Part shown: in pieces, positions 6,898 to 32,119 of the stretch
Numbering within the stretch: position 1 is the stretch's first letter
Layout: every line of letters begins with the position of its first letter
Source: a virus
Direction: 5' to 3' (one strand)
IMG/VR virus record: IMGVR_UViG_3300010399_000003
Location: 1 to 48,852 of that record
DNA: 48,852 bases
Program-made: the position numbers and the translations under genes
The notes under the pieces: model-generated
Databases searched by the model: none
Told to the model about the DNA's origin: nothing
The model's input: the letters and a program-made list of their open reading frames with translations, nothing else

Positions 6898-7294
6898 GCC
6901 AATCGTAATCGCTGCTAGCGAAGCGGCACGTAGATCGATTTCTGCTGAACAGCAACGAAAGAAGATCGCACAACGAATGGCCGTATTAGCGAAACGTCAG
7001 CATGAGACTGCTGTTGCAAAAGCCTTAGCGAGTGTTCCGCGGCACCTCAAAGAAATCAACGATCAAATTCAAGCAGCGATCAAGACTGGTGACAATGCAG
7101 TTACTGCGCATTTCAACGTAAGTCCGACGTCTGGTCCGGTGTGTGAAGCGATCACCAAAGAATTGAAGAAACTTGGTTATCAGGTGGCTGCTGAATTTCG
7201 TGAATACGATGAAAACATGGGCGATTTCAATGCGCCCTGTAACGTGCACGTTTCAGAAGTCATTTTGACGATATCGTGGAAAAGAACTCCATGA
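6881..7294 (+). CDS. hypothetical protein
   Basis: ORF MPPKVKPIVIAASEAARR...; 17-nt overlap with the upstream gene. Confidence 0.5.
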   Translation: MPPKVKPIVIAASEAARRSISAEQQRKKIAQRMAVLAKRQHETAVAKALASVPRHLKEINDQIQAAIKTGDNAVTAHFNVSPTSGPVCEAITKELKKLGYQVAAEFREYDENMGDFNAPCNVHVSEVILTISWKRTP

Positions 7295-7554
7295 AGCTCC
7301 TACCATTTGAATCATTCGCGACGGATGACGGGATTGTCTGCCCGATGTGTAATTATTGCCATGCACAGGGTGGCATTTTCAACAGCACGATTACGAAATT
7401 TTGTGTTCTTGTGCACGCACCTGGTCAGACGCTCGATTTGACAACACTCAGCTCAGAACGAGTTCCTCACTTAGATCGAACCTGTCGTCGATGCGGATAT
7501 CAGTGGCAGGAAGAAACGTGTGCACCGATGAGCCATCCGCGTTATGACGTGTAA
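7291..7554 (+). CDS. zinc-ribbon small protein
   Basis: CPMCNYCH ... CRRCGYQW Cys pairs; overlaps upstream stop. Confidence 0.45.
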   Translation: MKLLPFESFATDDGIVCPMCNYCHAQGGIFNSTITKFCVLVHAPGQTLDLTTLSSERVPHLDRTCRRCGYQWQEETCAPMSHPRYDV

Positions 7555-10761: not shown

Positions 10762-10930
10762 GGTTGGATGGGAGTTCTTTTGCGAACATGCAAACGAGGT
10801 GCCGCGCGTGTGTCCGTGTCCGGATACGTGTCCATGCCGGCAAGGGAAGTGTGGTCCAGTTGCTGAATGGGACGGTGATATTGCTGATGATTTCCATCCG
10901 GGCCACCCGCGATGGTTTGGAGACCACTAA
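10718..10930 (+). CDS. possible Cys-rich small protein
   Basis: CPCPDTCPCRQGKCGP; overlaps neighbours and start unclear. Confidence 0.25.
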   Translation: MRRFGRCRLDDFASKVGWEFFCEHANEVPRVCPCPDTCPCRQGKCGPVAEWDGDIADDFHPGHPRWFGDH

Positions 10931-11193
10931 TGGCGAAACGTCAATCGATTGAAGCTGTGAAGCCGGCAGGTAAGTGGGAGTTGCACAAGCAGGAATTTTG
11001 CCGGTCAGTGAAAGACCTCAGCACCACGGAGCTCGAATACCGAGCGACTTTAAACAGCAAAGCGCTCGGCGAAACAAACACCGAGGTGCGAGCGATGATG
11101 GACCATTTGGCGACCGCGAAAAAGGAGATCGCCAAATTGGAGCGGGAGCGCGAGGTGCTGAACTCGCTGCTGCGGCAACGGGCGACGTGCTGA
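10912..11193 (+). CDS. hypothetical coiled-coil protein
   Basis: 93 aa; C-terminal KKEIAKLEREREVLNSLLRQ. Confidence 0.5.
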   Translation: MVWRPLMAKRQSIEAVKPAGKWELHKQEFCRSVKDLSTTELEYRATLNSKALGETNTEVRAMMDHLATAKKEIAKLEREREVLNSLLRQRATC

Positions 11194-11198
11194 TTTCC

Positions 11199-11240
11199 AT
11201 CCGGGACCGCCCGGCATCCGCTAGGGCGGTCCTGGCTTTA
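11199..11240 (+). terminator. rho-independent terminator-like hairpin
   Basis: GGGACCGCCC-ggcatccgcta-GGGCGGTCC perfect 9-10 bp stem followed by TGGCTTT. Confidence 0.5.
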
Positions 11241-11279
11241 CACCGTAAAGACAGATGCTTAACCGGACAAGGTGCATGC

Positions 11280-11620
11280 TTGAGCGGTTTCGCTCGTAAA
11301 TACTTGTGAATAAAGGACTTATAGTCGTCAGAAACCGCTAAATTACTTAAGAATTCTTGACGTTTTCGGACCGTTTCGACGACCCGTAACTTATTGAAAA
11401 CAAAGGACTTAACCCCGTAGGGGACCGAGGTGGCGTCATCAAAATGAGGCGTAGAAAAAGCAAAAGTCCTTGATTACAGAAACGTAATGCCCGCTAAAGC
11501 CTTATTTTACTAGGGTTTGCGACGCAAGAAATATTTTTGACGCAAATTACAGGCGTTTTTTGACGGCCGTAAACCGTTCTAAATAGGCGTGTTACGGTGA
11601 TTTCCAAAACTTAGCGCATT
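11280..11620. promoter_or_regulatory. AT-rich intergenic regulatory region with repeated short motifs; origin or promoter cluster candidate
   Basis: AAAGGACTTA twice direct and once inverted (AAGTCCTT). TTGACG three times. CAGAAAC and CGTAAC repeated. No credible ORF. Confidence 0.4.
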
Positions 11621-12134
11621 TTCGGCCCTATACTTGTTCCAGGCGCTGTCGTGTTAAGCGCCTCGCGGTTGGGGACGGGTGCGCCGTAGTTGCTGGTTAC
11701 CGTCGGGAGACGGAAGCTAGTTAGCTCGAGCTCATGAAGCACCAGAAGGCCAATCGTGATGAAGCCGGATTGGTGTAGGGCCGTCTGGCGGCTGTGTTCA
11801 AGCGCGGGGACCAGGAGCGTTTCCGTAGGCAGATTCGACAAGCCGCTGCCAGCGCGTTCATCCATCTTAAGCCTTGGGGCTGCCGGCCCTCAGAGAGTCT
11901 GTGGCCTATCCCTTCAGGTGGGAGCCTAACGGCTGGCTGTTTAGCTGGGTCAATGTTAATGGGTGTAGCAAACCCGCTCTCGTTACTGTGGTCGTCCTGG
12001 TGGTTTCACCGGGTTCGTTCGCGGTCTAGGAGGAAAAATCGCCCGCCTAAAATCTACCCGAAATAAATGTGTCCTAGAGCCCACAATCTGCGGCTGCGCG
12101 ACGATAGGTAGAGGGACGGCGGTCTAACCTTAGC

Positions 12135-12176
12135 CGACCGGGGCCGGTATCATCCGGCCCCGGTTCACTTTTCCGG
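12135..12176 (+). terminator. terminator-like hairpin
   Basis: CCGGGGCCGG-tatcat-CCGGCCCCGG perfect 10-bp stem followed by TTCACTTTT. Confidence 0.5.
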
Positions 12177-12178
12177 AA

Positions 12179-12236
12179 CCAGAAACCGTGGTGGAGAACC
12201 ACGGTTGCCCGAATGGACGGGCCTGATGAGGTTCCA
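12179..12236 (+). promoter_or_regulatory. conserved intergenic cassette copy A
   Basis: CCAGAAAC, then hairpin CGTGGTGGAGAACCACGG, then GAATGGACGGGCCTGATGAGGTTCCA, then ATG. Confidence 0.55.
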
Positions 12237-12422
12237 ATGCGTAAAGTCACGACGAAGTCCCACCGTAAGTCTGTTTCCCAGAAACAACCGTTCGTCAACA
12301 CCGTAATGTGTCAGTGGTTCGCACTGTGCAACCGCCCCGCGACCGGAACGACGCGTCATCCGGCGCTCGGTAACGTGCCGACCTGCGACCGGTGCCATAA
12401 CTTCGCGACGGAGAAGCGGTAA
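12237..12422 (+). CDS. zinc-ribbon small protein
   Basis: ATG directly after the conserved GGCCTGATGAGGTTCC leader; CQWFALC ... CDRCHN Cys pairs. Confidence 0.5.
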   Translation: MRKVTTKSHRKSVSQKQPFVNTVMCQWFALCNRPATGTTRHPALGNVPTCDRCHNFATEKR

Positions 12423-13656: not shown

Positions 13657-13734
13657 GGAGCTAGAAACGGCCGACCTGAGGATTTCCAAACTTAGGTCGG
13701 CGTCGCCTGAATTAACAGGCCTGATGAGGTTCCC
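13654..13734 (+). promoter_or_regulatory. conserved intergenic cassette copy B
   Basis: TAAGGAGCTAGAAAC, then hairpin GCCGACCT-gaggatttccaaactt-AGGTCGGC, then GAATTAACAGGCCTGATGAGGTTCCC, then ATG. Confidence 0.6.
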
Positions 13735-14666: not shown

Positions 14667-14755
14667 AATCAGGGACCGGTAGGATTTCCAAACTTAGGCT
14701 CGGCAAGCGTTCGTCCACTCGTCGTCGTAAACCCAATCGTTCAGGTAGGTGTGTC

Positions 14756-16408: not shown

Positions 16409-17342
16409 CCTCTTGGACAATCTCGAACCGACAATCACGCCAACGGAGCCGATGCTGGCTGCGCCAGAAAGCCAGCTGTGCGTGGAGGACTGGACGGCGT
16501 GGGCAATTGAACGGAAGTACGATGGTCATCGGATGATCATCTATCGGATCGGGAAATCCGAGCTCCACGTCTTTGCGCGACCGACTGGCGACGGTCGCAT
16601 GATTGAACGGACGAGCAAGCTCCCGGCGGAATTGATTCAGGAGCTGAAGAAGTTGCCGCCGTCGGTGACGGATGGCGAACTGCTTGGTGGCGATACGGGC
16701 ACCGACGTCACGCGGAAGGACCTCGCACACAACCTGTCGATGGTGATCTTCGACTTGCTGGAGGTCGATGGCATCGATTGGAAGAACGAACAATATGATT
16801 TCCGCCGGCAAGGATTGGTCGAGATCTTCAATCGGCTCAAGTTGAACCCGTCACGAGTGCAGCTGGCGGAATCACACTTGCTGCGGAGCGAAGGTGACGC
16901 GTTGAAATTTGTTCAGCGTGTCTTCAAAGAAAACGGCGAGGGAGCCATTCTGAAATTCCGGCGCGGTCGCTACCTGCCTGGCAAGCGGAAGAAAGAACTG
17001 TGGGTCAAGATCAAGCGCAAGGAAAGCGCGGCGCTGCCGATTGTCGGTTTCGAACCATCACGTGGCGAGGTGCGGTTTCCTGGTCACCCGTTTGCAATCG
17101 TCAGGTTGATGGATGACGACGGCAACGAAACTACGTGTAAGACGAAGACCGATGAGGAATTGGCGAAATTCGTCGCGCTCTGGCAGAAGAAATTTCCAAC
17201 GGTGCCGCTGAATCAGGTGACGGTGGAGATGGCGAAAAAACACCCAGCGGTCGGACGGTTGTTGCGCATTGAGTTTCCACGTCGCACTCGAACTGGTGGC
17301 TATCAGGGTCCGGTCATCTGGGATCGATGGGAAGACGAGTAG
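16398..17342 (+). CDS. ATP-dependent DNA ligase
   Basis: Motif I KYDGHR (KxDG, adenylated lysine), FDLL, DGELL, EGAILK and the C-terminal LWVKIK motifs. Confidence 0.85.
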   Translation: MAASLLDNLEPTITPTEPMLAAPESQLCVEDWTAWAIERKYDGHRMIIYRIGKSELHVFARPTGDGRMIERTSKLPAELIQELKKLPPSVTDGELLGGDTGTDVTRKDLAHNLSMVIFDLLEVDGIDWKNEQYDFRRQGLVEIFNRLKLNPSRVQLAESHLLRSEGDALKFVQRVFKENGEGAILKFRRGRYLPGKRKKELWVKIKRKESAALPIVGFEPSRGEVRFPGHPFAIVRLMDDDGNETTCKTKTDEELAKFVALWQKKFPTVPLNQVTVEMAKKHPAVGRLLRIEFPRRTRTGGYQGPVIWDRWEDE

Positions 17343-17417
17343 GATCTAGAAACCGTGGCCGACGATTTCCAAAGTTAGGTCGCGGTCGCCGGAATGAACC
17401 GGCCTGAGGAGGGTCCG
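17340..17417 (+). promoter_or_regulatory. conserved intergenic cassette copy C
   Basis: TAGGATCTAGAAAC ... GATTTCCAAAGTTAGGTC ... GGAATGAACCGGCCTGAGGAGGGTCCG then TTG. Confidence 0.6.
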
Positions 17418-17885: not shown

Positions 17886-18236
17886 GTGCTCATGTCCGGA
17901 GAGATGAAGAATGAATTGGTCAAGTTCGTGTGTGGCGTTGAAGATCACGTCCTGCACGTCTCCATCTATCGCGGGAAGAAGGACATCCACACGATGTGCA
18001 AGTGGAAGACCCCGGATGGGAAGACCAAGACCGGGTGCCGGGCATATTTCGAGCTCCACGAGGTGGACGAAGCACAGAAAGCGTTCAAGAAGCTGCTGAA
18101 GGAGGCGGAAGAGCAGGGTTGGAAGGTGCTGGAGAAGACGCAGCGGTCGACCGGCTTCAACTCGATCCCGGCTGCACCGAAACCGGCATCGTCCAGGGTG
18201 AGCCAGCTGGCCACTCCAGCGTCGGGCAAGAAGTAG
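17886..18236 (+). CDS. hypothetical protein
   Basis: 116-aa ORF with AAGGAG SD. Confidence 0.5.
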   Translation: MLMSGEMKNELVKFVCGVEDHVLHVSIYRGKKDIHTMCKWKTPDGKTKTGCRAYFELHEVDEAQKAFKKLLKEAEEQGWKVLEKTQRSTGFNSIPAAPKPASSRVSQLATPASGKK

Positions 18237-18319
18237 GATCTAGAAACGCGGGAGGGCGGACAAATAGGGTCCGCCCTCCGGAGTCGTCGCCGGAATGAAC
18301 CGGCCTGAAGAGGATCCGT
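18234..18319 (+). promoter_or_regulatory. conserved intergenic cassette copy D
   Basis: TAGGATCTAGAAAC, then hairpin GGAGGGCGGAC-aaatagg-GTCCGCCCTCC, then GGAATGAACCGGCCTGAAGAGGATCCGT, then ATG. Confidence 0.6.
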
Positions 18320-20756: not shown

Positions 20757-20781
20757 ACAGATTTCCAAACTTAGGTCAATC

Positions 20782-21051: not shown

Positions 21052-21264
21052 ATGCTGAATCTGACTATCGGTGCCACTTACATCGTCCGACCAGGTGATC
21101 ACTTCGAGTTAGTGCTGCCGGATGGCACGACGCTGAGTGTCGAGCAAACGCAAGATGACTTTTCCATCATTCATACGAATGACGAAGTCGCGTATCGCAC
21201 GCCGACGAGTCAATTCGCGAAAGAGAACGAAGCAGATCAACCGCGTGTGACGGGTCGGAAGTAG
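21052..21264 (+). CDS. hypothetical protein
   Basis: TAAATG junction with the upstream gene. Confidence 0.45.
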   Translation: MLNLTIGATYIVRPGDHFELVLPDGTTLSVEQTQDDFSIIHTNDEVAYRTPTSQFAKENEADQPRVTGRK

Positions 21265-21327
21265 GAGCTAGAAAGGTGGTCATCGTGACCACCTCGCCCG
21301 AATCAACGGGCCTGAGGAGGTTCCTGC
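21262..21327 (+). promoter_or_regulatory. conserved intergenic cassette copy E
   Basis: TAGGAGCTAGAAA, then hairpin GGTGGTCA-tcg-TGACCACC, then GAATCAACGGGCCTGAGGAGGTTCCTGC, then ATG. Confidence 0.6.
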
Positions 21328-21618
21328 ATGGAAGTGGGACAGTTCATGAAGTTGGAAGGATACGATCAGGTGGCGAAGGCCCAGACGGATTATGGGTTCG
21401 TCGGTGTCTATTCCAACAACCACAATTTCCTCTTCGTCGTGACGGTCGAAGAGGAAGCGATGAGCGATGGGGAGGGCATTCACGGCCGCGTCGAAGGTGA
21501 GTATCCGTATCACAGCGACGATGAGCAGGGCGCGGCGGAAATCAGTGGTTGGCGCGATGCGTATGAAAAGGCGCTCATGCAGTTGGTCCAATTGACGATG
21601 AGGTTCACCCATGAGTGA
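21328..21618 (+). CDS. hypothetical acidic protein
   Basis: Follows the conserved cassette and leader. Confidence 0.5.
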   Translation: MEVGQFMKLEGYDQVAKAQTDYGFVGVYSNNHNFLFVVTVEEEAMSDGEGIHGRVEGEYPYHSDDEQGAAEISGWRDAYEKALMQLVQLTMRFTHE

Positions 21619-21844
21619 GCAGAAATCGGTGACAGAATCCGAGCGTCGCACGTTAGGACTCGTCATGGCGCTGCTCGAGACGATCAAGGAAACCGGAGCA
21701 CAAGGCGCGCCATCCGGTGTGTGCTATACGGCGTTCATGATGCACGGTATATCCTACGTCGAATATCTGAAACTCGTCGATATCGCGTTGCGGACCGGCA
21801 AGGTCCGTCAGTCCGCCAACTGTTTCTATTGGATTGGAGAATAA
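21611..21844 (+). CDS. hypothetical protein
   Basis: Overlapping start. Confidence 0.5.
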   Translation: MSEQKSVTESERRTLGLVMALLETIKETGAQGAPSGVCYTAFMMHGISYVEYLKLVDIALRTGKVRQSANCFYWIGE

Positions 21845-21846
21845 TC

Positions 21847-22272
21847 ATGTCAAAGCCGATGCTGAACCTCAAGATTAACGTGAAGGAAGAGAACGTCAAT
21901 CGCGCCTGCACGCGGAACTCGCACTGCTGCATGATCGCCGACGCCGTTCGGGATCGTCTGAAGTGGGCGACGTTCATCGAAGTAGATGCACAGTCGATTC
22001 GCTTCAACGATCGGAAGAAAGGCATCCGCTACATCTACCTGACTCCACCGGAAGCACAGAAAGCCATCGTGCTCTTCGACCAGGGAGTCAAAGTCAAGCC
22101 GTTCAGCTTCCACCTGTCACAGGGATTCATGAAGACGCGGGTGATGCGAGCACGTCAGAAGAAAGCGAAGAAGACGTCGCGCGAATACAAGAAGGCGAAT
22201 CCGACGAAGAAGTCGACGAAGCGGACTCCGGCGTTCATTCGGCAGTTCGGTCTCCGCGGTCTGACCAAGTAG
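21847..22272 (+). CDS. hypothetical protein with a Lys/Arg-rich C-terminus
   Basis: ATG 2 nt after the upstream stop; C-terminal KKAKKTSREYKKANPTKKSTKRTP. Confidence 0.5.
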   Translation: MSKPMLNLKINVKEENVNRACTRNSHCCMIADAVRDRLKWATFIEVDAQSIRFNDRKKGIRYIYLTPPEAQKAIVLFDQGVKVKPFSFHLSQGFMKTRVMRARQKKAKKTSREYKKANPTKKSTKRTPAFIRQFGLRGLTK

Positions 22273-22283
22273 GAGCATTTCCA

Positions 22284-22787
22284 ATGTTCAATCAGTGCAC
22301 CTGCGTGATGCTCGATGCTCCGGTCGACGACATCCCATGCGAATTTTGCGCGACGATGATCTGGGCAGCGGAACTCGAAGCGAAGATCAAGGCGCTACCG
22401 ACTCATGACGATCTGGAAGACGCGAAGATGGATCGTTCTGAGATTGAGGACGCGGTTGATGACGTCCTCAAGGACAGTTACGTCAAGGAAGAAGATCTCG
22501 AAACCGAGTTCGAACGATACATCAAGGACATCGACCTCGTTGACCGAGAAGATCTGAACGACTACGTGCTCGACTCGGAACTCGAAGAGAAGATCAGCGA
22601 AGCGCTGAACGATACCGATCTCGTGCGCGATGTGGCGGCTGGCGCGGCGGAAGGCGCGATGCGTAATCTGAATCGCTTCGCGACGAAACAGGAAGTCGTC
22701 GACATCGCGCTCGAAACGCTCAAGACGGCAATCCAAAATATGCCGTTCTGGACACGGCTTCGTTTGCTGTTTGGGCGGTCGGCATGA
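22284..22787 (+). CDS. hypothetical acidic protein
   Basis: Start at MFNQCT preceded by TAGGAGCATTTCCA; rich in Asp and Glu. Confidence 0.5.
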   Translation: MFNQCTCVMLDAPVDDIPCEFCATMIWAAELEAKIKALPTHDDLEDAKMDRSEIEDAVDDVLKDSYVKEEDLETEFERYIKDIDLVDREDLNDYVLDSELEEKISEALNDTDLVRDVAAGAAEGAMRNLNRFATKQEVVDIALETLKTAIQNMPFWTRLRLLFGRSA

Positions 22788-23020
22788 TCGAGAAATTTTC
22801 GGTCTGCCAGTGGTTCGACGACGGTCAGTACGATTACGAACTTCGCTACGTTCCTCTAGAACGAGCAGTCACGCGCGCCATGGGGATCGCCCACAGTGTG
22901 GGCGGTCGCCTTGGCACAACCGTCCGAGTCATCATCACTGATGGTGATGACTCGATTGTTTGGGAATGGAAACATGGTGAGGGCATTGTGTTCCCACCGG
23001 AACTGAAAGGTGCCCACTAA
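22784..23020 (+). CDS. hypothetical protein
   Basis: ATGA overlap. Confidence 0.45.
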   Translation: MIEKFSVCQWFDDGQYDYELRYVPLERAVTRAMGIAHSVGGRLGTTVRVIITDGDDSIVWEWKHGEGIVFPPELKGAH

Positions 23021-24537
23021 TGGGACACTTCACAATCGCCAAACCGACGCACGAGCAACTCGCCATTCGTGACGAGTTCATCCATGGTCGGAAACCGTTC
23101 ATGGTCGTTGCTCGTGCAGGTGTTGGAAAGACCACGATGTCCTTCGATGGCATCGAACATTGTCCGGAGGTGCAGCGCGGCTGGGTGCTCTATCTCGCGT
23201 TCAACAAGAAGATCGAGATTGCCGCGAAAGAGAAAAACGGCGTCATCGTCGTCCGTGGGAAAGATGTGGGCACCCCATTGATTCCGCGATTGGAAATCAA
23301 GACCATTCACAGCACCGGCCTGCGCTTTATCCGAACTCGATGGCGTGATTGTGGAATCAGCTTCGAAGGAGAACGCGCGGATGCACTGACGGCAAGTGTG
23401 TGCGGAGCAACCGTGCCGGAAGACGTCGCGCGATTGGTCACGAAACTGCATACGAAGGCTCGTGAGATTAATCCGATGGCGCGTGCTATTGGCGATCTCA
23501 CAGACTTGGCCTTGCAGTTCGAATGCGAGCCAGACGAGGAGCATCAGATCAAAGGGTTTAATCTGGATTATGTCGAAGCACGCGCACTCGAAGCGATGGA
23601 GTTGGCGGCCATGAAAGAACCGTCAATCATCGATGGCGCCGACATGATCTTCCTGCCAATCCGCAATGGATGGTTGCGGCCGACGTGGGATTTTGCACTC
23701 GTCGATGAAACGCAGGATATGACTCCAGCCCAACTGCTCATCGCCAAAGGGATTGGAAAAGGTCGCCTCGGATTGGTCGGCGATGACCGGCAAGCGATCT
23801 ATCAGTTCCGCGGCGCGGGAGTCGGCACGATGAGTCGGCTTCAGCAGGAACTGCAAGCGAAGACGTATCCGATGACGGTCACCTTTCGGTGCGGAAAGAA
23901 GATCGTGGAACTCGCGCAGAATTTTGTTCCCGATCTGCAAGCGGCGGACTCCAATCCGGACGGTGAGGTGCTGGAAGGCTCAGTGGAGCAGATGTTGCAG
24001 ATGGCAGCACCCGGCGATTACGTGCTGAGTCGCCTGAATGCTCCACTCATGCCGATTGCGATGTCGTTCCTGAAAGCTGGCAAACGAGCGAAGATCAACG
24101 GCACGGATATCGGTCAGTCGCTCGTAAAGTTAGCGCGCAAATTGATGCGACGTGGTGATGAGTCCGTCGAGAACTTCATCACGCGCATCATGTTGTGGCG
24201 CGATAACCAAGTGTCGCGGCTCATCGCGGCGAAGCGGCCGCAACGCTACATCGATTTCGTCAACGATAAAGCGGAGATGATCATCGACCTTTGTGAAGAC
24301 ATGGGGTCGGTATCGGCTGTCATTTCGAGATTGGAAACACTGTTCATCGATGCTGGTCAGGGTGATACTGGCGTTATCCTGTGCTCCTCGGTCCACAAGG
24401 CGAAGGGTCTGGAAACCGATCGAGTATTCGTGCTCCGCGATTCACTTCGGTCACATACGGAAGAAGAATTGAATATCCAATACGTCGCGTTCACTCGAGC
24501 GAAAACCACGCTCATGCTGGTTAGCGGAGGTGTATAG
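23020..24537 (+). CDS. SF1 DNA helicase (Dda/RecD/UvrD-like)
   Basis: Walker A ARAGVGKTT, motif II LVDETQDM, and C-terminal SVHKAKGLETDRVFVL (motif V/VI). Confidence 0.8.
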   Translation: MGHFTIAKPTHEQLAIRDEFIHGRKPFMVVARAGVGKTTMSFDGIEHCPEVQRGWVLYLAFNKKIEIAAKEKNGVIVVRGKDVGTPLIPRLEIKTIHSTGLRFIRTRWRDCGISFEGERADALTASVCGATVPEDVARLVTKLHTKAREINPMARAIGDLTDLALQFECEPDEEHQIKGFNLDYVEARALEAMELAAMKEPSIIDGADMIFLPIRNGWLRPTWDFALVDETQDMTPAQLLIAKGIGKGRLGLVGDDRQAIYQFRGAGVGTMSRLQQELQAKTYPMTVTFRCGKKIVELAQNFVPDLQAADSNPDGEVLEGSVEQMLQMAAPGDYVLSRLNAPLMPIAMSFLKAGKRAKINGTDIGQSLVKLARKLMRRGDESVENFITRIMLWRDNQVSRLIAAKRPQRYIDFVNDKAEMIIDLCEDMGSVSAVISRLETLFIDAGQGDTGVILCSSVHKAKGLETDRVFVLRDSLRSHTEEELNIQYVAFTRAKTTLMLVSGGV

Positions 24538-24869
24538 TGCCTGGATTCAGGGAACTCACCGTCAAAGCATTGTTGAAGAAACTCGAAGACACCAAGATTC
24601 CGCGTTACATGCATCACACGCTCGCCTACTACATCGCCGAAGGCAAACCGACTGGTCATTTCCTGACCGCGGTGCTCACGAACGATTTGAAGGAAGCGTG
24701 CAATCGGGCGGACGACGATAACAAGGATCGGCTCTACGATTACGTGTTCTTCCTCTACAACAACGCGCCGTCCGCGTGCTGGGGTTCACCGGAAAACGTG
24801 GCCGAGTGGCGGAAGGAAACAGCCGTGAAGCAGGAGATCGCTGCCGCTGCTGCAGCGGAGGGTTCATGA
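24537..24869 (+). CDS. hypothetical protein
   Basis: TAGTG/ATG junction; 110 aa. Confidence 0.5.
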   Translation: MPGFRELTVKALLKKLEDTKIPRYMHHTLAYYIAEGKPTGHFLTAVLTNDLKEACNRADDDNKDRLYDYVFFLYNNAPSACWGSPENVAEWRKETAVKQEIAAAAAAEGS

Positions 24870-24870
24870 T

Positions 24871-25074
24871 ATGGTCATTCGAGTGCGGTTCGCAAAATTC
24901 GGTGCGCATTTCCATTGTCGGGTGTTCACAGCCAAGCGCAAGAATCAATCGTTCGGCAAATGCGGCGACTTGACCTTCGACGAGCGTGAATGGCCGGAGG
25001 TCCGGGAGATTCTCGAAAGTAGATCGATTGAAGTCTTGCCAGATGATGATTCCCACATCTTTAGTGGGCCGTGA
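24871..25074 (+). CDS. hypothetical protein
   Basis: 67-aa ORF. Confidence 0.4.
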   Translation: MVIRVRFAKFGAHFHCRVFTAKRKNQSFGKCGDLTFDEREWPEVREILESRSIEVLPDDDSHIFSGP

Positions 25075-25081
25075 GGTGTCA

Positions 25082-25231
25082 ATGCATAAAGTCTATCCGG
25101 AGATCATCGTCAAGCGATGGCTCCTGTCAATCGTGAATTGTTACGGACGTCGACAATTGTACGCAGCGCTGTGTCGTCGCTGGCGTGTCGCACAAGAACG
25201 TCGTATGAGAGGACAAGGGTGGCGAAGATGA
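25082..25231 (+). CDS. possible small basic protein
   Basis: Internal ATG of ORF 24986..; weak. Confidence 0.25.
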   Translation: MHKVYPEIIVKRWLLSIVNCYGRRQLYAALCRRWRVAQERRMRGQGWRR

Positions 25232-25443
25232 AGTTCGCAGTCACAGCCGTTGCCATCAGCCGGAGGACCCGGCGGCGGATGGGGAAAGCGAAAACCGAGG
25301 TCATTGATACTGCGCACAACGAGTTGTTCATGCAACTCGAAGATCCGAAAGAAATCGAAGAAGCCTACGAACACTGGTGGAATTGCCTCAATCCCAATTC
25401 GCCAGACACAGTCAAAGTGGTTGACGTCAGGAAGGTGGCATGA
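25228..25443 (+). CDS. hypothetical protein
   Basis: ATGA overlap; MKFAVTAVAISRRTRRR... Confidence 0.4.
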   Translation: MKFAVTAVAISRRTRRRMGKAKTEVIDTAHNELFMQLEDPKEIEEAYEHWWNCLNPNSPDTVKVVDVRKVA

Positions 25444-25739
25444 TGCCTCGCGTCGCACCGCACACATTTCCAAAAATCTTTCTGTCAATCGTGGAACAAC
25501 TCCACGACATGGGCGCAGTGAATCGAGAAACACCGTTGCCTGAATTTGTCGACATCGATTTCTTCACCGAAGAAGAATTGCAAGCCACCGACGATGCATT
25601 GTCGGAATTGTCAACTGACGAATTCGAGACGCTCTGCATCGGCGAAGCAACCGAAGCCGAGGCAATCGCCGCAAGAAGTCCCGCGCTGACACGTGCAGAT
25701 CAAATCATGCTCTACGTCTTCGACGGGACAAAGCCATGA
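25440..25739 (+). CDS. hypothetical acidic protein
   Basis: ATGATG overlap. Confidence 0.45.
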   Translation: MMPRVAPHTFPKIFLSIVEQLHDMGAVNRETPLPEFVDIDFFTEEELQATDDALSELSTDEFETLCIGEATEAEAIAARSPALTRADQIMLYVFDGTKP

Positions 25740-26212
25740 TCATCGGCGTATCGGCCACGTCGCGCGGATTGACCGCGCGACAGAGTGCAACGATCTGGTG
25801 CTTGTTCGATGAATTCCGAATTTCGGTGCTGCATTTCGGCGACTGTGTGGGTGGCGATGCGCAGTTATTTCGTATCGCTCAGCAGATGGGTGCGTGGACG
25901 GTGGCACATCCACCGTCCAACCCCAAAGCGCGTGCCTTCTGCAAAGCCGATCAGACTATGGATCCTGTGCCGTATCTCAAGCGTAATTGGCACATCGTCT
26001 ATGCCTGTGACGGCTTCATCGGTGCGCCGAAGGATTTCCATCAACCGAAGAACCTGCGCGGTCAGGGCACATGGACAACAATCGGATATGCGCGTAAGCG
26101 CCAGAAGGAGATGAACGGGATTCCGAGAATTTGGTTGGTCATGCCGGATGGGACATTTCGCGAGGAGAAGTTCAATGCTGGTGACGCCGGAAACGCATCG
26201 CATCGAGATTGA
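25736..26212 (+). CDS. hypothetical protein, possibly with a Rossmann-like N-terminus
   Basis: ATGA overlap; IIGVSATSRGLTARQ. Confidence 0.5.
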   Translation: MIIGVSATSRGLTARQSATIWCLFDEFRISVLHFGDCVGGDAQLFRIAQQMGAWTVAHPPSNPKARAFCKADQTMDPVPYLKRNWHIVYACDGFIGAPKDFHQPKNLRGQGTWTTIGYARKRQKEMNGIPRIWLVMPDGTFREEKFNAGDAGNASHRD

Positions 26213-26414
26213 AGCTCATATCGCGCCACCAATGCAACTGGCGGTGACAATTCCGCTGGCGATTGACGGAAGACACTCGCTCTTCGACGGTTATACCCTC
26301 TATGTGGCACTCGGCGGATTCCACTCGGAACGTCGCGAATCGCGACGTGTCCTGAAAGCCATTGCGAAAGCGATTGGCGAACATCTCAAAACTCTTCCCA
26401 GTGTGGAGGTCTAA
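26175..26414 (+). CDS. hypothetical protein
   Basis: Start uncertain (26148 or 26175). Confidence 0.35.
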   Translation: MLVTPETHRIEIEAHIAPPMQLAVTIPLAIDGRHSLFDGYTLYVALGGFHSERRESRRVLKAIAKAIGEHLKTLPSVEV

Positions 26415-26416
26415 AC

Positions 26417-27604
26417 GTGACGAAGATCGACGCGGTCATTCCAATTCATCCTGATGATGTGCTGCTGTTCAACGAAATCCGGAGTGCGATGCAATCAGTC
26501 GCCAAGGAATACAAGCTGCCGTTGAAGTCGATTCAGGGATTTCCAATGCCGGAATCCGGGATGGCAGACCGGCTCGGCGATTGTTCACACGACGGACATA
26601 TTCGTTTGGTCATGCGCTGCACGGTGAACGGCGAGTGGTGTAGCGCACCGTTGAGCCCGAAAGAAATCTGGGACACGGCGGCGCATGAGCTCGCTCACTT
26701 ACGCCACTTCAATCACGGTATTCAGTTCCGCGAGTTTGAGTTAGAGCTCCAAGAGGCTCTGTCCAATCGGAACGAAGATCATCGGCAAAAGCTGCTCAAG
26801 AAGCTCGTGAAGATTCAGAATCTGCGTGAAAGCGAAGCGCAGCTGGGCAACACGGAAGCAGCGGAATCGTTCGCCGCAGCGATCAATCGGATGCTAGTCG
26901 AGAACGAACTCAACCCGTCAGACATCGATTACGCACGTGCCGCAGATCACGATCCGGTCATCGAAGTGCGATGCGATCCGAAAGATTGGGTCTTCAAACG
27001 TGATGATCATGGGCCGTCGAAAGAATCGTATCGGAAAAAGACGCGCGTCGCATGGCAAGAATCGTTGGCGCGTATCGTCGCGAATGGAAATCTGTGCACG
27101 TTCTTGGTCGCGCGTGATACGAACGTCATCTGGTTTGTTGGAACCAAATCACACGCTACCGTCGCGTCGTACATCTACAGCATCCTCGTGCCGAACGCGG
27201 ATTACATGTCCGACAAGGAGAATTACTACTTCAAGCTGAAGTGCAATCGGGAAGGAACGAAGCACCTTGCTCGCGGATTCCGCGGTGCGTGGCTCGATGC
27301 GTTCGTCAAGCGTGTCGAAGAGCGACTGAACGAAGAGCGCAAGGCGGCAGTCAGACAGGCAGCAGCGGACGTGCCAGGCGGTCAATCGCAGGCGCTGATG
27401 CGTCTGAGCGGCGCGCTCTTGAAAGCACAGAAATACGTCGAAGACAAATTCACAGGCAAGAAAAACACGAGCATCAAGGCACTCGGTAGTTGGGCGAAAT
27501 ATCATCGTCAGGGCACCGAGGCTGGACGAGCAGCGGCAGATCGCATGCCGATCGGTCGTCGTGGCATGGATTCGGCAACAGAACGCAAGAAGTTAGGAGA
27601 ATAG
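26417..27604 (+). CDS. protein with a YgjP/DUF45-like HExxH metallopeptidase motif
   Basis: WDTAAHELAHLRHFNHGIQF resembles the YgjP/WLM/SprT-type HELxHLxxxNHs motif; GTG start with GGAGG upstream. Confidence 0.55.
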   Translation: MTKIDAVIPIHPDDVLLFNEIRSAMQSVAKEYKLPLKSIQGFPMPESGMADRLGDCSHDGHIRLVMRCTVNGEWCSAPLSPKEIWDTAAHELAHLRHFNHGIQFREFELELQEALSNRNEDHRQKLLKKLVKIQNLRESEAQLGNTEAAESFAAAINRMLVENELNPSDIDYARAADHDPVIEVRCDPKDWVFKRDDHGPSKESYRKKTRVAWQESLARIVANGNLCTFLVARDTNVIWFVGTKSHATVASYIYSILVPNADYMSDKENYYFKLKCNREGTKHLARGFRGAWLDAFVKRVEERLNEERKAAVRQAAADVPGGQSQALMRLSGALLKAQKYVEDKFTGKKNTSIKALGSWAKYHRQGTEAGRAAADRMPIGRRGMDSATERKKLGE

Positions 27605-27606
27605 CT

Positions 27607-27825
27607 ATGACCGTAATCCGCAAGGACACATACACGTGCTATTTCCTCAACAGCAATACGGAAAAGACATTTCCAAGCCTCGCAGAAGCACGGGCTGCTG
27701 CCGAAGCGTATTGCGGCAACAATAGTTACGCCAAACCGCTTCCAAGAGACAACACGTTTCTCTACGGACCGGGCGACGGGACAACGTCTGTCATGGTTCG
27801 TCAAGACGTAGAATTCGTAGATTAG
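27607..27825 (+). CDS. hypothetical protein
   Basis: ATG after GGAGAATAGCT; 72 aa. Confidence 0.45.
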   Translation: MTVIRKDTYTCYFLNSNTEKTFPSLAEARAAAEAYCGNNSYAKPLPRDNTFLYGPGDGTTSVMVRQDVEFVD

Positions 27826-27834
27826 GAGTCATCA

Positions 27835-28026
27835 ATGGAAGAACAGATTCGCGAGCTCACAGCTGAAGCGTCGACACTCGGATGGCGACCAGGTTATCGA
27901 CCAGATTCGATTGTGCATCAGGGACTCGTCTTCAACTTGCAAGACACTGATGTCTCCATCGATGGTGATGTCATCGCGTGGATTTACATGGCTCCTGGAA
28001 CCAAATTGACGGTGTTCAATGACTGA
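27835..28026 (+). CDS. hypothetical protein
   Basis: AGGAG SD. Confidence 0.4.
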   Translation: MEEQIRELTAEASTLGWRPGYRPDSIVHQGLVFNLQDTDVSIDGDVIAWIYMAPGTKLTVFND

Positions 28027-28363
28027 TGTGAAACAAATTCAACGCGACCTCCACGACGCATTAGAATTGATTGACGTCTTGCAACACGCGACGCAACTAC
28101 ACGGATACGAGCGACAACCCTACTATCGGCAGATTCAGCTCCTCCTGACTCGGGTGCAAACACTGCTCCTCCTGACTCAGACACAGGAAAAATTGAAAGT
28201 CTACGTCATCGCGAACAAACAGACTGACGCGATTGCAACCGGACGAATCTTCAGCTCGGCAGAAGCCGCTGATAAAGGTCTGATGAAGTTGGTCTCATGG
28301 GTGGCTTCGGAAGCCGACATCCGACGCATGTTTGAAGTAACCGAAGTGGAGGTCGAGTCATGA
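28019..28363 (+). CDS. hypothetical protein
   Basis: ATGA overlap. Confidence 0.5.
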   Translation: MTDVKQIQRDLHDALELIDVLQHATQLHGYERQPYYRQIQLLLTRVQTLLLLTQTQEKLKVYVIANKQTDAIATGRIFSSAEAADKGLMKLVSWVASEADIRRMFEVTEVEVES

Positions 28364-29400
28364 CTCAACTCGCACAACCACCCGGTGTGGCAGCACCGTG
28401 GCAAGTCGCCATGGATTCCCACATGAGCGCATTGAAACTAATCAATCATCTCACGAATCATTCGAATGATCTTGATTCGCGGTGGGCGGTCGATAAATTG
28501 ATCATGGAAGACGCCGTGCCGTTTTCGTGGTCCACCGAATCGATCGAAGCAGTCCTGGCCGCGAGTCGAACAATTCCACCGGATACGGTGCTGAACGTCT
28601 GGAATCTCGATACGAATGCCGCGTGGTGGTATTTCGACCAGGAACTGCCGTTTCCCACGATCAACGGCATCGACGGAATTCCGCCAGAGATCGCATCCAA
28701 AACTGGAGTCAAAGCCATGAGCATCGGATGGGTGTTGCATGCGCCTGAGGTTGCCAAGTTTCCAGCTGGCACCGATGTGCGAATTGTGGAACGCGCAATC
28801 CGGGAAGGTCCACCGAAGAAGCGCATGCTCGCAGTCGCGTCGTGGCTGTTAGACCCACTCAAACGATGGACCATGATTCCATCGCAAACGATGCAATGGG
28901 AGTTGAATGATTCACTCGAAGAATTGATGCGCAAATCGAAAACCAAGCATCAACACTTATACGGACCAGGAGGCAAGTGGGAGCGCGTCGCGCATGTCCA
29001 TGAAGACGTGTTCATGAATGCGGCGGAAGGAATGGCTCGATTCATTTTGGCTGGCTTAGCATGGTTGAATCAGAAGGTGCCGATTCTAGTTCAGTCGGAA
29101 GGGCACATCGAACGGCATCGACGTAAGGAATATCAGAAGAAAGTCAATCCGAGTATCACGCATGTGAAAGTCATTTCGCTGCGTCGGGTGGAGCGCCAAA
29201 AGGCGGCAGACCCCGATACAGCACCCGGCGCAAAGCGCGAATATTCTGTCCGATTTCCCGTGGACGGTCACTGGCGCAATCAACCTTACGGACCGAAGCG
29301 CCATGAACGGCGTTTGATCTGGATTTCGCCATTCATCAAAGGTCCTGCGGATAAACCGCTCCGCGTGCCGGAGCACAAAGTCTACAAGGTGAATCGATAA
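28360..29400 (+). CDS. hypothetical protein (346 aa)
   Basis: ATGA overlap; long clean ORF. Confidence 0.55.
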   Translation: MTQLAQPPGVAAPWQVAMDSHMSALKLINHLTNHSNDLDSRWAVDKLIMEDAVPFSWSTESIEAVLAASRTIPPDTVLNVWNLDTNAAWWYFDQELPFPTINGIDGIPPEIASKTGVKAMSIGWVLHAPEVAKFPAGTDVRIVERAIREGPPKKRMLAVASWLLDPLKRWTMIPSQTMQWELNDSLEELMRKSKTKHQHLYGPGGKWERVAHVHEDVFMNAAEGMARFILAGLAWLNQKVPILVQSEGHIERHRRKEYQKKVNPSITHVKVISLRRVERQKAADPDTAPGAKREYSVRFPVDGHWRNQPYGPKRHERRLIWISPFIKGPADKPLRVPEHKVYKVNR

Positions 29401-29513
29401 TGCGTTGGTTTATCTTCAAACTCATCACATACCTGCTAATCTGGTTAGCGAAGATCTTCCTTGGTCTCGCGTTCTGGATAGCTGGCGGGCGAAATGGGAA
29501 AGGGATATCATGA
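29400..29513 (+). CDS. possible 37-aa membrane peptide, absent from the ORF track because it is shorter than 60 aa
   Basis: TAATG overlap upstream and ATGA overlap downstream. MRWFIFKLITYLLIWLAKIFLGLAFWIAGG is a single TM helix. Confidence 0.35.
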   Translation: MRWFIFKLITYLLIWLAKIFLGLAFWIAGGRNGKGIS

Positions 29514-29782
29514 ATCCATGGTGGAGTCAGCAAGAATTCTACTGCAAATGCCAATTTGCACACAGAAGAGATTTCTGGGGTCAATTCATTCCAGGAATAG
29601 ATCCATGGGTGCATGTACACAGACAAGAACCACCGCATGCGTGTGCACGATGCAGTGAATGCAAGGAATATCGTCCTCACATTCCTGAACACATTGGTAT
29701 CAAGATTTTGCTCGGTCCAGAAATATCGGTATCAGAAGCCGCCGATATTTTGCTGGGTAAAGAAGAGAAGGTGGATCGATGA
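29510..29782 (+). CDS. Cys/His-rich small protein
   Basis: MNPWWSQQEFYCKCQFAHRRD...HACARCSECKEY. Confidence 0.4.
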   Translation: MNPWWSQQEFYCKCQFAHRRDFWGQFIPGIDPWVHVHRQEPPHACARCSECKEYRPHIPEHIGIKILLGPEISVSEAADILLGKEEKVDR

Positions 29783-30126
29783 GCAAGAAAATCATTTATC
29801 GCCAAGACTATCTCTCGTCCGACGGCGAAACGAAACACTGGGTTGTCGTCTACGACGATGATTCAATTTCCTGCTCGTGCCGTGGCTTCAGCACACCATC
29901 CAAATGCTGGCATGTAAAAAAAGAAGCCAAAGACATGGGTCTGGAACTCGATATCAGCACATGGGGCGCGAAACTCGGGCCTCCGCTGAAGGATGAACGA
30001 ATGGAAATGCTCGTCAAGGGCAAGACCTTCGTCGCAAATCCGGGACCGCATTCCTATGTGCGGAGTCACCTCACTGTGTGCTATTCGTGCGGAAAACTAA
30101 AGAAGGATCCGATTCACTGGCGATGA
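29779..30126 (+). CDS. SWIM zinc-finger protein
   Basis: ISCSCRGFSTPSKCWHV fits the SWIM CxCxnCxH signature. Confidence 0.55.
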   Translation: MSKKIIYRQDYLSSDGETKHWVVVYDDDSISCSCRGFSTPSKCWHVKKEAKDMGLELDISTWGAKLGPPLKDERMEMLVKGKTFVANPGPHSYVRSHLTVCYSCGKLKKDPIHWR

Positions 30127-30332
30127 ATCTGCGAATCTGGGCAGCCTGTCGATTCTGCGACGGACAACACGTGATTGACTCCTACGATCTAGGATTCGGT
30201 CGCGACAAAGCGGTCTGCGCAAACTGCGTCGAGAAACTCGAAGCACAATTTCCATCGAAGATAGCAAAGCAAATTCTGCTCGGCAATCTTCCTGCGCCGC
30301 CTGGTCTTTTCAGACAGAAGGAGAAACCATGA
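30123..30332 (+). CDS. zinc-ribbon small protein
   Basis: ATGA overlap; CRFCDG...CANC. Confidence 0.4.
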   Translation: MNLRIWAACRFCDGQHVIDSYDLGFGRDKAVCANCVEKLEAQFPSKIAKQILLGNLPAPPGLFRQKEKP

Positions 30333-30778
30333 TTGATGCATTCCGCGGAAAGTACATGAAATTGAGCAACTACTCGCTCGTGACCATCATGTACGAAGGT
30401 CACGCCTACATGTCCGTCGAACATGCGTATCAAGCACAAAAGACGACGGATCCTGTGTTGCAGAAACAAATTCGTGATTCACCAACTCCGGCGACCGCCA
30501 AGAAACTCGCGCGCAGCGTTCCGCTTCGACCGGATTGGGAAGAAGTCAAAGTGCCGATCATGCTCCAATTGCTTCGTGAGAAATTCGCGCAAGAACCGGA
30601 GCGCACGATTCTCATGACGACCTACGATGAGGAGCTCGTCGAAGGCAACTGGTGGAACGATACCTTCTGGGGCGTCTGCAACGGCGTCGGCGAAAACATG
30701 CTCGGTAAATTGCTCATGAAAGTTCGCCAGGAACTTTGGGAAGAGCTGGCTATGGACGGAGGTTCATTGCCAATATGA
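30329..30778 (+). CDS. NADAR-domain protein (YbiA/DUF1768 family ADP-ribose-processing hydrolase)
   Basis: By eye it aligns to E. coli YbiA: SNY...EHAYQAQK, SPTPATAKKLARS, LREKFAQ, LVEGNWWNDTFWGVCNGVGENMLGKLLMKVRQEL. Confidence 0.85.
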   Translation: MIDAFRGKYMKLSNYSLVTIMYEGHAYMSVEHAYQAQKTTDPVLQKQIRDSPTPATAKKLARSVPLRPDWEEVKVPIMLQLLREKFAQEPERTILMTTYDEELVEGNWWNDTFWGVCNGVGENMLGKLLMKVRQELWEELAMDGGSLPI

Positions 30779-31155
30779 TGATCTTGCTGATCTTGCAACT
30801 TATCGTCGCGCCGGACCACCGTCTGACTCCTGGCTTGATCAGGACCAACATCAGCGCCGTCGAATCGTGCGCGACTCGCTGGAGTCTGGATGCACGGCAC
30901 GTGACTACCAGGATGCGCCGGCAGGTTTTCCAAAGTTACGGCATCGCCTGGAGCGACCGACGCTTCTACGTCGTAGACCACCTGATTCCGCGTGAGCTCG
31001 GCGGCGCAGATGATCTGCGAAATTTGTGGCCACAGAGTAAGGCGAATGCCAAGCGCAAAGATGTATGGGAGAATCGCTTACATCGTGATGTTTGCGCAGG
31101 GCGCATGCGATTTGTCGATGCTCAACGCATTATGCGAAACTGGGATCGTCCCTAA
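30775..31155 (+). CDS. HNH endonuclease
   Basis: YVVDHLIPRELGGADDLRNLWPQSKANAKRKD is an HNH core (DH-x-xP ... GG ... N). Confidence 0.75.
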   Translation: MMILLILQLIVAPDHRLTPGLIRTNISAVESCATRWSLDARHVTTRMRRQVFQSYGIAWSDRRFYVVDHLIPRELGGADDLRNLWPQSKANAKRKDVWENRLHRDVCAGRMRFVDAQRIMRNWDRP

Positions 31156-31171
31156 GACGGAGGTGATTGGA

Positions 31172-31576
31172 ATGAACACAACATTTCGAATAGCGACACA
31201 TTCAGTGCTTCCTGATCGACAGGTTATTGAGATCTGGTGCGCTGGTAGTTTCATTGGGCAAATTACGGCGATCAATGGACGACCTGGTCTACGAGTTCTG
31301 AGTAAGCACGGTTTACGAACAAATCCAATGCCAGAACCTGCTTCAGATGTAACAACACCCGTTGCGGTGGTGGAAGTGGAAGTATTGGTAAAGTCGGCAA
31401 CACCTCACACCGAGTTACTGGAGCCAACCTTGGAACAGCAATTGGCATTCTCATTGGAGATGCAGTCACGACTGGAACGGCGCAACGAAGAACTCGCCGA
31501 TGCGTATGAACAGATGCGTCAGGAACTTGACCGTATCAAGGCGGTAATCCTTGCACTTCATGCGGAACGAAAATGA
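31172..31576 (+). CDS. hypothetical protein
   Basis: ATG after GGAGGTGATTGGA; coiled-coil C-terminus. Confidence 0.5.
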   Translation: MNTTFRIATHSVLPDRQVIEIWCAGSFIGQITAINGRPGLRVLSKHGLRTNPMPEPASDVTTPVAVVEVEVLVKSATPHTELLEPTLEQQLAFSLEMQSRLERRNEELADAYEQMRQELDRIKAVILALHAERK

Positions 31577-31872
31577 ATACACGAAAAGAAGAAAATGAGC
31601 AAAAAGCACGTGACGTGATTCACGCGCTCAGCAACTATGTCAACGAATGCCGGCCGATCGAATTCCTCGTGGATTCGATGGCAAACGAGCACCCAACGAT
31701 TCAACAGCAGATGACAATCTTCACCTTGCAGTGGTTGCTGCATCTATCCACGTTACATCAATACGACTTGCGAAATTCGAAATCCATCAGCATCGCCAAA
31801 GCCGTCCGTCCGATCTTGGAAGCGAAAGACGTAATTCGCGAAGATGGAAGGGTGCATCTACCATGTATCTAG
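31573..31872 (+). CDS. hypothetical protein
   Basis: ATGA overlap. Confidence 0.45.
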   Translation: MNTRKEENEQKARDVIHALSNYVNECRPIEFLVDSMANEHPTIQQQMTIFTLQWLLHLSTLHQYDLRNSKSISIAKAVRPILEAKDVIREDGRVHLPCI

Positions 31873-32114: not shown

Positions 32115-32119
32115 GGTGA

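Follow-up and report, generated by a model that had tools for sequence, protein, structure and literature searches.

Clustered hammerhead ribozymes flanking phage genes were reported in 2011 by Perreault et al. (PMC3088659), and in most type II hammerheads a pseudoknot is formed between loop I and the 3' tail that follows stem II (PMC3088659). Phage-encoded non-coding RNAs of several hundred nucleotides, such as GOLLD and ROOL, have also been described (PMC12286853), and the lambda nut (boxA/boxB) and HK022 put sites combine a covarying fixed-loop hairpin with a short single-stranded box near the promoter, at the 5' end of a long operon. Features that recall each of these systems are found in a gene-free gap of a viral DNA stretch of 48,852 nt (IMG/VR record IMGVR_UViG_3300010399_000003, positions 1 to 48,852; hereafter the window), extending from the stop codon at 11193 to the ATG at 12237. 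This gap is probably, at around 60%, the control region and the non-coding first segment of an operon punctuated by hammerhead ribozymes.

The gap ends in a type II hammerhead-like three-way junction (12175-12235, plus strand), identified with Rfam RF02276, by parsing of its copies and with RNAalifold. Stem II is formed by 12175-12180 and 12230-12235, stem III occupies 12185-12205 and stem I 12207-12222, and the core comprises the unpaired A12181, GAA (12182-12184), U12206 as H17 and CUGAUGA (12223-12229). From the hammerhead numbering, self-cleavage is predicted after GUU, between U12206 and G12207. The element occurs five times in the window (at 12207, 13705, 17388, 18289 and 21296; 0.01 expected), each time on the plus strand and with a start codon immediately after it. 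Motif search and parsing placed copies 2 to 5 at 13657-13733, 17342-17416, 18236-18317 and 21261-21327, the last of these also being recovered with RNAalifold. The order of its parts is GGAnCY, A, GAA, a variable hairpin opened by an A-U pair, a non-G nucleotide, a GCCNG-AAUNNA-CNGGC hairpin, CUGANGA and GGNUCC, which corresponds to a type II hammerhead with stem II open and stems III and I capped. CUGANGA, GAA, the A15.1-U16.1 pair and, ahead of the cut, a non-G nucleotide (H17) are present in each of the 31 distinct copies that were parsed, as they must be by construction, since the parser demanded these features. In an alignment of 18 copies the CUGANGA columns are invariant and the A15.1-U16.1 pair is present in 18/18; RNAalifold recovered the three-way junction from these copies unaided, with stems I and III capped, stem II open and compensatory changes at 12 of the 18 pairs. 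The predicted cleavage triplets of the 31 copies are GUC (23), CUC (5), UUC (2) and GUU (1). The Rfam Hammerhead_II model (RF02276) aligns to 12178-12239 with 23.9 bits (E = 0.0027 in a 91-nt search), scores 15.5 bits on the copy in contig L153 and gives no hit to the copy at 21261.

The Shine-Dalgarno sequence of the first downstream open reading frame (ORF), GAGG at 12228-12231, lies inside CUGAUGA-GG, that is, within the hammerhead core and stem II, and on this structural model the folded ribozyme would hide the ribosome-binding site for as long as stem II stays paired. The start codon at 12237 comes 5 nt after the Shine-Dalgarno sequence, and the same placement (CUGAnGA-GG) is seen in the copies at 13721, 17404, 18305 and 21312.

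The hammerhead cluster is a variant of the known phenomenon. It resembles the phage type II clusters (PMC3088659; RF02276) in its capped stems I and III, open stem II and full core including the NUH triplet, and, as in those clusters, small phage genes are separated by several copies on one strand, as would fit the processing of a polycistronic RNA. It differs from RF02276 in its sub-threshold score, in the unpaired A before G12 in 27 of 31 copies and in a fixed 5-bp stem I (GCCNG/CNGGC) with an AAUNNA loop. The pairing of loop I with the 3' tail that most published type II examples have could form, through UGGA/UCCA, in the 12207 copy alone, no such complementarity being detected by eye in the other four window copies. 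Two further differences from the published clusters are that part of the core and stem II doubles as the Shine-Dalgarno sequence of the following gene and that the first ribozyme-delimited segment is non-coding. A sister clade of hammerheads (L153 8000-8600; L149 reverse complement 1700-2040; L147) has GGCAUA-C-GAAAC instead of GGAnCU-A-GAAAC on the 5' side, with a C beside G12 and the bulged A one pair deeper in stem II. The densest array seen, in L138 800-4600 (IMG/VR 3300011423_000022), contains eight hammerheads in 3.8 kb, approximately one per small gene.

The module that precedes the first hammerhead was found in ten lineages, in contigs fetched through the Pam3_Gp34-like protein encoded ~1 kb upstream, then through a recurrent DNA motif and then with a small covariance model. 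These lineages are the window group (L001-L004 and L033), L005, L009 (identical to L010 and L139), L012 (cut by the contig end), L133, L134, L135, L145, L149 and L153. By sequence comparison they have homologous modules with a common layout of AT-rich repeats, a TATAMT-type hexamer, a hairpin (P1), a short G-rich element (the G box), a GC-rich variable body, a hammerhead and an ATG, with 296-574 nt from P1 to the hammerhead. Hammerhead cores in 11 loci (26 non-redundant, 33 with overlapping loci) all lie downstream of P1 and on the same strand, and none was found in the 3.7-11.6 kb upstream of P1 in these loci. The RNA that begins at P1 is thus located at the start of the hammerhead series, as the first, non-coding segment of the ribozyme-punctuated operon.

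The gap also begins at a unit boundary. The initial annotation had placed a terminator hairpin after the upstream gene, and a GC-rich, terminator-like inverted repeat is indeed present just 3' of the stop codon (11201-11235, plus strand), with 12-nt arms at 11201-11212 and 11224-11235 that are 92% complementary. Its U tract is weak (CUUUACACC) and a consensus terminator scan of the window did not flag it; inspection by eye showed comparable hairpins ahead of the AT-rich region in L009, L133 and L134. Together with the restriction of hammerheads to sequences downstream of P1, this hairpin indicates that the gap separates a hammerhead-free from a hammerhead-punctuated unit.

A -10-like hexamer, TATACT (11629-11634, plus strand), is the candidate promoter of the leader RNA. 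Its distance to the P1 loop is conserved: in seven lineages TATACT, TATAAT or TATGAT is separated from the loop by 12-16 nt, and inspection by eye showed TATACT 18 nt ahead of the loop in L145, TAATAT in L153 and TATATT in L149. This distance would place the RNA start at the foot of P1, at ~11641. P1 itself (11641-11663, plus strand), a covariance-model hit, is a 5'-terminal hairpin with a 7-bp stem and the loop GUCGUGUUA, for which the family consensus is GUYGKGUA, at times one or two bases longer. The stems differ among all lineages, and five of the five modelled pairs show compensatory changes across the ten of them; 94% of cells are paired compared with 61% in shuffles, the covariation score was reached by 0 of 500 shuffles, and in slid controls the paired fraction drops to 17-50%. 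P1 therefore covaries. Several stems contain U-G pairs; these count as standard pairs on the plus strand but not on the minus strand, suggesting an RNA hairpin and not a DNA cruciform.

The G box, GGGGACGGG (11671-11679, plus strand; family core GGGACGG), lies ~30 nt from the RNA start. In a k-mer census of the nine full-length homologs, no other 8-mer except that of the P1 loop kept a constant position throughout, and four alignments agree on the G box. The first bases of the P1 loop, GUY (11648-11650), are complementary to GAC of the G box (11674-11676) in 8/8 aligned sequences, and RNAalifold allows a pseudoknot of 3-5 bp; the columns concerned are invariant or changed on one side only, without covariation. 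Neither a kissing nor an antisense partner of the P1 loop was found in cis, and candidate long-range partners of the G box were no better than shuffles.

The arrangement of P1 and the G box is similar to that of the nut and put sites described above. It differs from them in that no boxA-like sequence (CGCUCUUUA) was found on reading 11641-11760, and in that a single conserved hairpin is present in place of the two-hairpin put structure. The loop has 8 nt (GUYGKGUA), whereas that of lambda nut is a GNRA-like pentaloop. A constrained body of 250-500 nt follows, which has no counterpart in nut or put, and no N-like or Q-like protein was identified.

Upstream of the hexamer, an AT-rich control region with a repeat array occupies 11250-11600. 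Its GC content of 0.37-0.48, compared with ~0.55 in the surrounding DNA, agrees with the AT-rich segment described initially, and the lowest values (0.37-0.42) are at 11300-11400 and 11450-11600. The repeats reported there were also recovered, namely AAAGGACTTA twice plus an inverted copy (11312-11321, 11402-11411 and 11464-11472), TTGACG three times and CAGAAAC twice. The AAAGGACTTA sites are the sole perfect or near-perfect copies of a longer motif in the 48.8 kb, a partly palindromic element of ~27 bp. Pattern searches located two direct copies 90 bp apart, CGTAAATACTTGTGAATAAAGGACTTA (11295-11321, plus strand) and CGTAACTTATTGAAAACAAAGGACTTA (11385-11411, plus strand), and one inverted copy on the minus strand at 11464-11493 (AAGTCCTTGATTACAGAAACGTAATGCCCG on the plus strand; match at 11464-11472). 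The 21-nt core of the second copy (TTATTGAAAACAAAGGACTTA) is identical in phage L133, in the opposite orientation. Homologs have one to five copies in mixed orientation, with GTAAC...GTTAC-like ends, and in six lineages the nearest copy lies 60-85 nt upstream of P1. This orientation independence and the partial dyad symmetry indicate, from sequence comparison, a site for a probably dimeric DNA-binding protein, and the position of the repeats is easier to reconcile with control of the RNA promoter, by an activator or at an operator, than with an origin.

Compared with the 95.5%-identical relative L033, the AT-rich region is hypervariable except around the repeat cores. At 11300-11500 a 200-bp patch is ~25% different, its flanks being ~1-2% apart, and the repeat cores are kept; this looks like the replacement of a segment and not like point mutation.

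A second recurrent motif is represented in the region by GATTTCCAAAACTTAG (11599-11614, plus strand), one of five copies in the window. The plus-strand pattern GATTTCCAAA(N)CTTAGG has 11 matches at up to 3 mismatches (2.1 expected), and its copies are at 11599-11614, 13681-13696, 14683-14698, 17364-17379 and 20760-20775. Two of them fall in the stem III loop of hammerheads, one immediately before an ATG and one 15 nt upstream of the leader -10 box, a setting repeated upstream of the -10 box in L135. A related form, GATTTCCATCCGGG, is found after the stop codons at 10887 and 11191. The motif could be a phage-specific promoter or a protein-binding site.

A large non-coding RNA was among the proposals of the initial annotation, and this holds in part. 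A plus-strand RNA of ~566 nt, from the probable start to the predicted ribozyme cut (11641-12206), is supported by a -10 box at a set distance from the covarying P1, by the lack of a conserved ORF, by a hammerhead-defined 3' end and by substitutions in the close relative L033 that keep wobble pairs. It has no global fold conserved among lineages, which share only the first ~45 nt. No internal motif or common fold past P1 and the G box emerged from a k-mer census, from pairwise alignments or from RNAalifold run on the first 110-140 nt, and nhmmer searches of all loci, with the RNAs of the window, L005 and L009 as queries, returned only near-identical copies and the hammerhead part. A scan of the whole window with Rfam 15 at the gathering threshold, covering group I and II introns, RNase P, tmRNA, GOLLD, ROOL, OLE, HEARO and riboswitches, matched no family to the RNA body; at E values up to 10, the bodies of the window, L133 and L153 gave chance-level matches alone, and ARAGORN detected no tRNA or tmRNA. 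The RNA resembles GOLLD and ROOL in being phage-encoded, non-coding and several hundred nucleotides long, and it differs from them in having no Rfam match, no conserved global architecture beyond the ~45 shared nucleotides and a modest thermodynamic signal.

The description of the region as highly structured was overstated. The z-score of -3.7 on the plus strand of 11580-12236 results from the inclusion of the terminal ribozyme hairpins, and the RNA body alone has z = -1.5. The perfect hairpins that had been listed do exist: GGCGCT/AGCGCC (~11642-11662), 12137-12147/12154-12164 and 12184-12192/12198-12206, of which the last is stem III of the hammerhead (12184-12206) and the second lies immediately 5' of it. 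That second hairpin (12137-12164, plus strand) has 11 perfect GC-rich pairs and is followed by UUCACUUUUCC; it is terminator-like or could protect the 3' end, it is not conserved in homologs, and in L033 the change C12160U retains a G-U pair. An attenuator model based on it and its U-rich tail was rejected, as homologs have no equivalent. The long-range closing helix proposed between 11624-33 and 11774-83 corresponds to a real pair of segments, 91% complementary, but it was discarded as an RNA helix because the conserved -10 box, which precedes the RNA start, overlaps its 5' arm and because nothing comparable is present in the homologs.

Comparison with L033 provides moderate evidence that the whole RNA is under structural constraint. 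In 566 nt there are 3 substitutions and 2 single-base indels, both indels lying in homopolymer runs and so possibly representing sequencing errors. Of the 6 substitutions in the adjacent Gp34 gene, 5 affect third codon positions, giving a neutral divergence of roughly 4% by our arithmetic, or ~20 changes expected per 566 nt compared with the 3 seen. All three RNA substitutions are U<->C changes at positions predicted to pair with G (probability at least 0.95), and only on the plus strand are these positions still paired after the change, as G-U or G-C.

These features can be assembled into a working model. Transcription of the upstream replication-type genes would stop at the 11201-11235 hairpin, and a dimeric protein bound to the ~27-bp repeats in the AT-rich DNA would control a -10-only promoter (11629-11634). 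The transcript would start at ~11641 with P1 and then the G box, the only parts conserved in all lineages, and would continue through the lineage-specific, moderately structured body to the first type II hammerhead, where cleavage would occur at 12206|12207. One product would be an RNA of ~566 nt capped by hairpins at both ends (P1, and stem III with a 2',3'-cyclic phosphate), and the other an mRNA with a 5'-OH whose ribosome-binding site GAGG would be freed on melting of the 6-bp stem II. The four further hammerheads in the next 9 kb would act likewise on the downstream genes. Most probably, P1 and the G box would serve as an RNA signal close to the promoter, recognised by a factor of the phage or the host, and would set the expression of the operon, either by acting on the elongating polymerase in the manner of nut and put or by marking and stabilising the released RNA.

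Several observations weigh against this reading. A nut- or put-type role needs the 5' end only and leaves a constrained body of 300-570 nt unexplained. Beyond the first ~45 nt the lineages have no alignable sequence and no demonstrated common fold, and the bodies of nine homologs have a mean z of ~ -1.2 (plus strand) and ~ -0.9 (minus strand), which is modest compared with shuffles. The estimate of constraint comes from one close-relative pair in a mosaic region. There is no -35 box, and a sigma-70 consensus scan gave no full promoter. For the ribozyme, 23.9 bits is below the RF02276 gathering score of 37, which no window copy reaches; the invariant unpaired A between the last stem II pair and G12, present in 27 of the 31 copies, departs from the textbook junction, where G12 comes straight after C11.1, and in L133 the RNA is followed by a degenerate element with CUUGAUAA instead of CUGAUGA. 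The RF02276 structure line also has an unpaired position there, with consensus C, and the extra A may be variation within the family.

The conserved 5' end and fixed position of the RNA favour a role in cis, and the constrained body favours one in trans. It is rather doubtful that the released RNA of ~300-570 nt is a stand-alone trans-acting phage non-coding RNA, serving as decoy, sponge or scaffold against a host factor, and equally so that the body evolves fast because its target is host-specific. Consistent with such a function are the constraint on all 566 nt relative to L033, with structure-preserving substitutions, the hairpin at each end after the predicted cleavage, the lineage-specific bodies, and the variation of the downstream genes by lineage, which indicates that the RNA is not bound to one gene. 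However, a search of the 48.8-kb window for antisense targets of the RNA gave none above chance, repeated protein-binding hairpins are absent inside the body, the P1 loop has no complement in cis, and the fixed place at the start of the hammerhead series suits a cis role equally. A sponge for a protein that binds the hairpins close to ribosome-binding sites was also considered and rejected, such hairpins not being multiplied inside the RNA. That P1, the G box and the body form an undescribed class of ribozyme-released phage RNA, with a 5' element that governs the operon or an RNA that acts in trans, is put forward tentatively, as a possibility that falls short of an even chance.

An origin of replication and a packaging site (pac/cos) had also been proposed for the gap. 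Nothing was found in support of pac/cos. In the case of an origin, the repeats would be iterons, the AT-rich DNA an unwinding element and the G-rich transcript an R-loop or primer, as in ColE1 RNA II and T4 oriF/oriG, where a promoter by AT-rich DNA and a long, structured, G-rich transcript are likewise found in a replication gene block. The AT-rich DNA with its conserved ~27-bp site, in either orientation, is present in every lineage, the G-rich box lies ~30 nt into the transcript, and the module is inside a replication-type gene block, after a gene whose product has weak structural similarity to OB-fold single-stranded-DNA-binding proteins. Still, an origin is unlikely on the remaining data. 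In the systems named the AT-rich DNA is downstream of the promoter, whereas here it is upstream, and the RNA ends at a ribozyme before a gene. There is no DnaA-box cluster, matches being no more frequent than by chance and the region containing one site with 1 mismatch; Tandem Repeats Finder detected no array of tandem or regularly spaced iterons, the window having two direct copies and one inverted copy; no initiator gene was recognised nearby; and the cumulative GC skew, computed as the initial annotation had advised, rises monotonically from 1 to ~35 kb, straight through the gap without inflection. The nearest repeat, 60-85 nt upstream of P1 in six lineages, is placed like an activator or operator site, and an origin needs neither a covarying RNA hairpin nor a ribozyme.

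The gap is non-coding, as first described: the ORF list contains no credible gene from the stop at 11193 to the ATG at 12237, and each of the six reading frames has several stop codons of more than one kind. It is highly improbable that a decayed or unrecognised protein-coding gene, or one with an alternative genetic code, is present here. Pipeline gene callers do place minus-strand ORFs in the region, of 84 aa in the window and 111 aa in L005, and some short homologs have an open frame by chance. The two called ORFs, however, have no mutual similarity, and the 84-aa sequence used as bait against 5.8 billion proteins matched only itself, with no relative or intermediate. An all-against-all six-frame comparison of nine homologs yielded nothing but translated P1 nucleotides. 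In both the window and L005 each frame has stops of at least two kinds, for which the reassignment of a single codon is no help, and the idea of a recoded gene was thus rejected. Ordinary genes at this place in related phages would have argued for decay, and what the relatives contain is the same non-coding module.

The reading of the gap as the opening of a hammerhead-punctuated operon makes the purpose of phage hammerhead clusters testable, since it gives the ribozyme-punctuated transcription unit a defined start. This start combines a putatively regulated promoter, a conserved 5' RNA signal and a non-coding segment that the first ribozyme would release. If cleavage is confirmed, the module would be a small system for asking whether ribozyme processing couples mRNA maturation to translation, and whether a ribozyme-released leader can be a regulator. 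Should the RNA also prove to be the undescribed class considered above, hammerheads with the ribosome-binding site in the core, together with the released RNA, would amount to a phage gene-expression scheme built around self-cleaving RNA. The RNA has no Rfam family, and yet it is found in at least ten uncultured phage lineages. In a limited literature search, descriptions were found neither of the P1 and G-box RNA family, nor of a non-coding RNA opening a ribozyme-punctuated operon, nor of ribosome-binding sites fused to a ribozyme core.

A strict 5' pattern (GTCGTGT..AGC..GGGACGGG) run against IMG/VR gave, among the matches listed (at least 20), only chance matches in coding DNA, and 50,697 phage records held no DNA-level match to the gap or to 25 kb of the window. 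In a host search of 185,579 species-representative genomes, a single true hammerhead of this variant was detected, at 1-60 of L156, a 3.8-kb contig (DATLRG010000005.1) binned to a metagenome-assembled genome of Chloroflexota; this may point weakly to the host range or may reflect a binning artefact. A match to a Pirellulaceae contig in the genome-collection scan was a chance match.

The window is part of a metagenomic contig of 112,870 bp (ENA ERZ27256670; L001, window coordinates being those of L001 plus 3651), with near-identical copies in other soil datasets, and its gene content points to an uncultured phage. The plus-strand genes include those for thymidylate synthase, an RNase T-like exonuclease, an SNF2 helicase, a Pam3_Gp34-family protein, an ATP-dependent ligase and a UvrD helicase, and the module is set in a block of replication-type genes (thymidylate synthase, exonuclease, SNF2 helicase and ligase). 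The last small gene of the hammerhead-free unit encodes 87 aa (10930-11193, plus strand; from the ORF list and also called in L001 at 7279-7542), and the first ORF of the ribozyme-punctuated unit, with its ATG at 12237, a Cys-rich product of 61 aa (12237-12422, plus strand; ORF list). Although the last hammerhead ends at 21327, plus-strand genes run on to ~35.8 kb (21327-35800), suggesting a further transcription-unit boundary near 21-23 kb.

The Pam3_Gp34-family protein (PF23977; 9652-10413) was modelled as a beta-rich fold with a mean predicted local distance difference test (pLDDT) score of 77. Its best structural matches, all weak, are OB-fold single-stranded-DNA-binding proteins (RPA, the RB69 gp32 core with a probability of 0.75, and MCM N-terminal domains), none of them with an E value of 0.001 or lower, and by this model it may be the single-stranded-DNA-binding protein of the phage. 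Minus-strand genes show weak similarity to tail tape-measure proteins, and a radical-SAM-family protein (phrog_1802, E = 7e-28) is encoded beside the putative tail genes at 41910-43214 on the minus strand.

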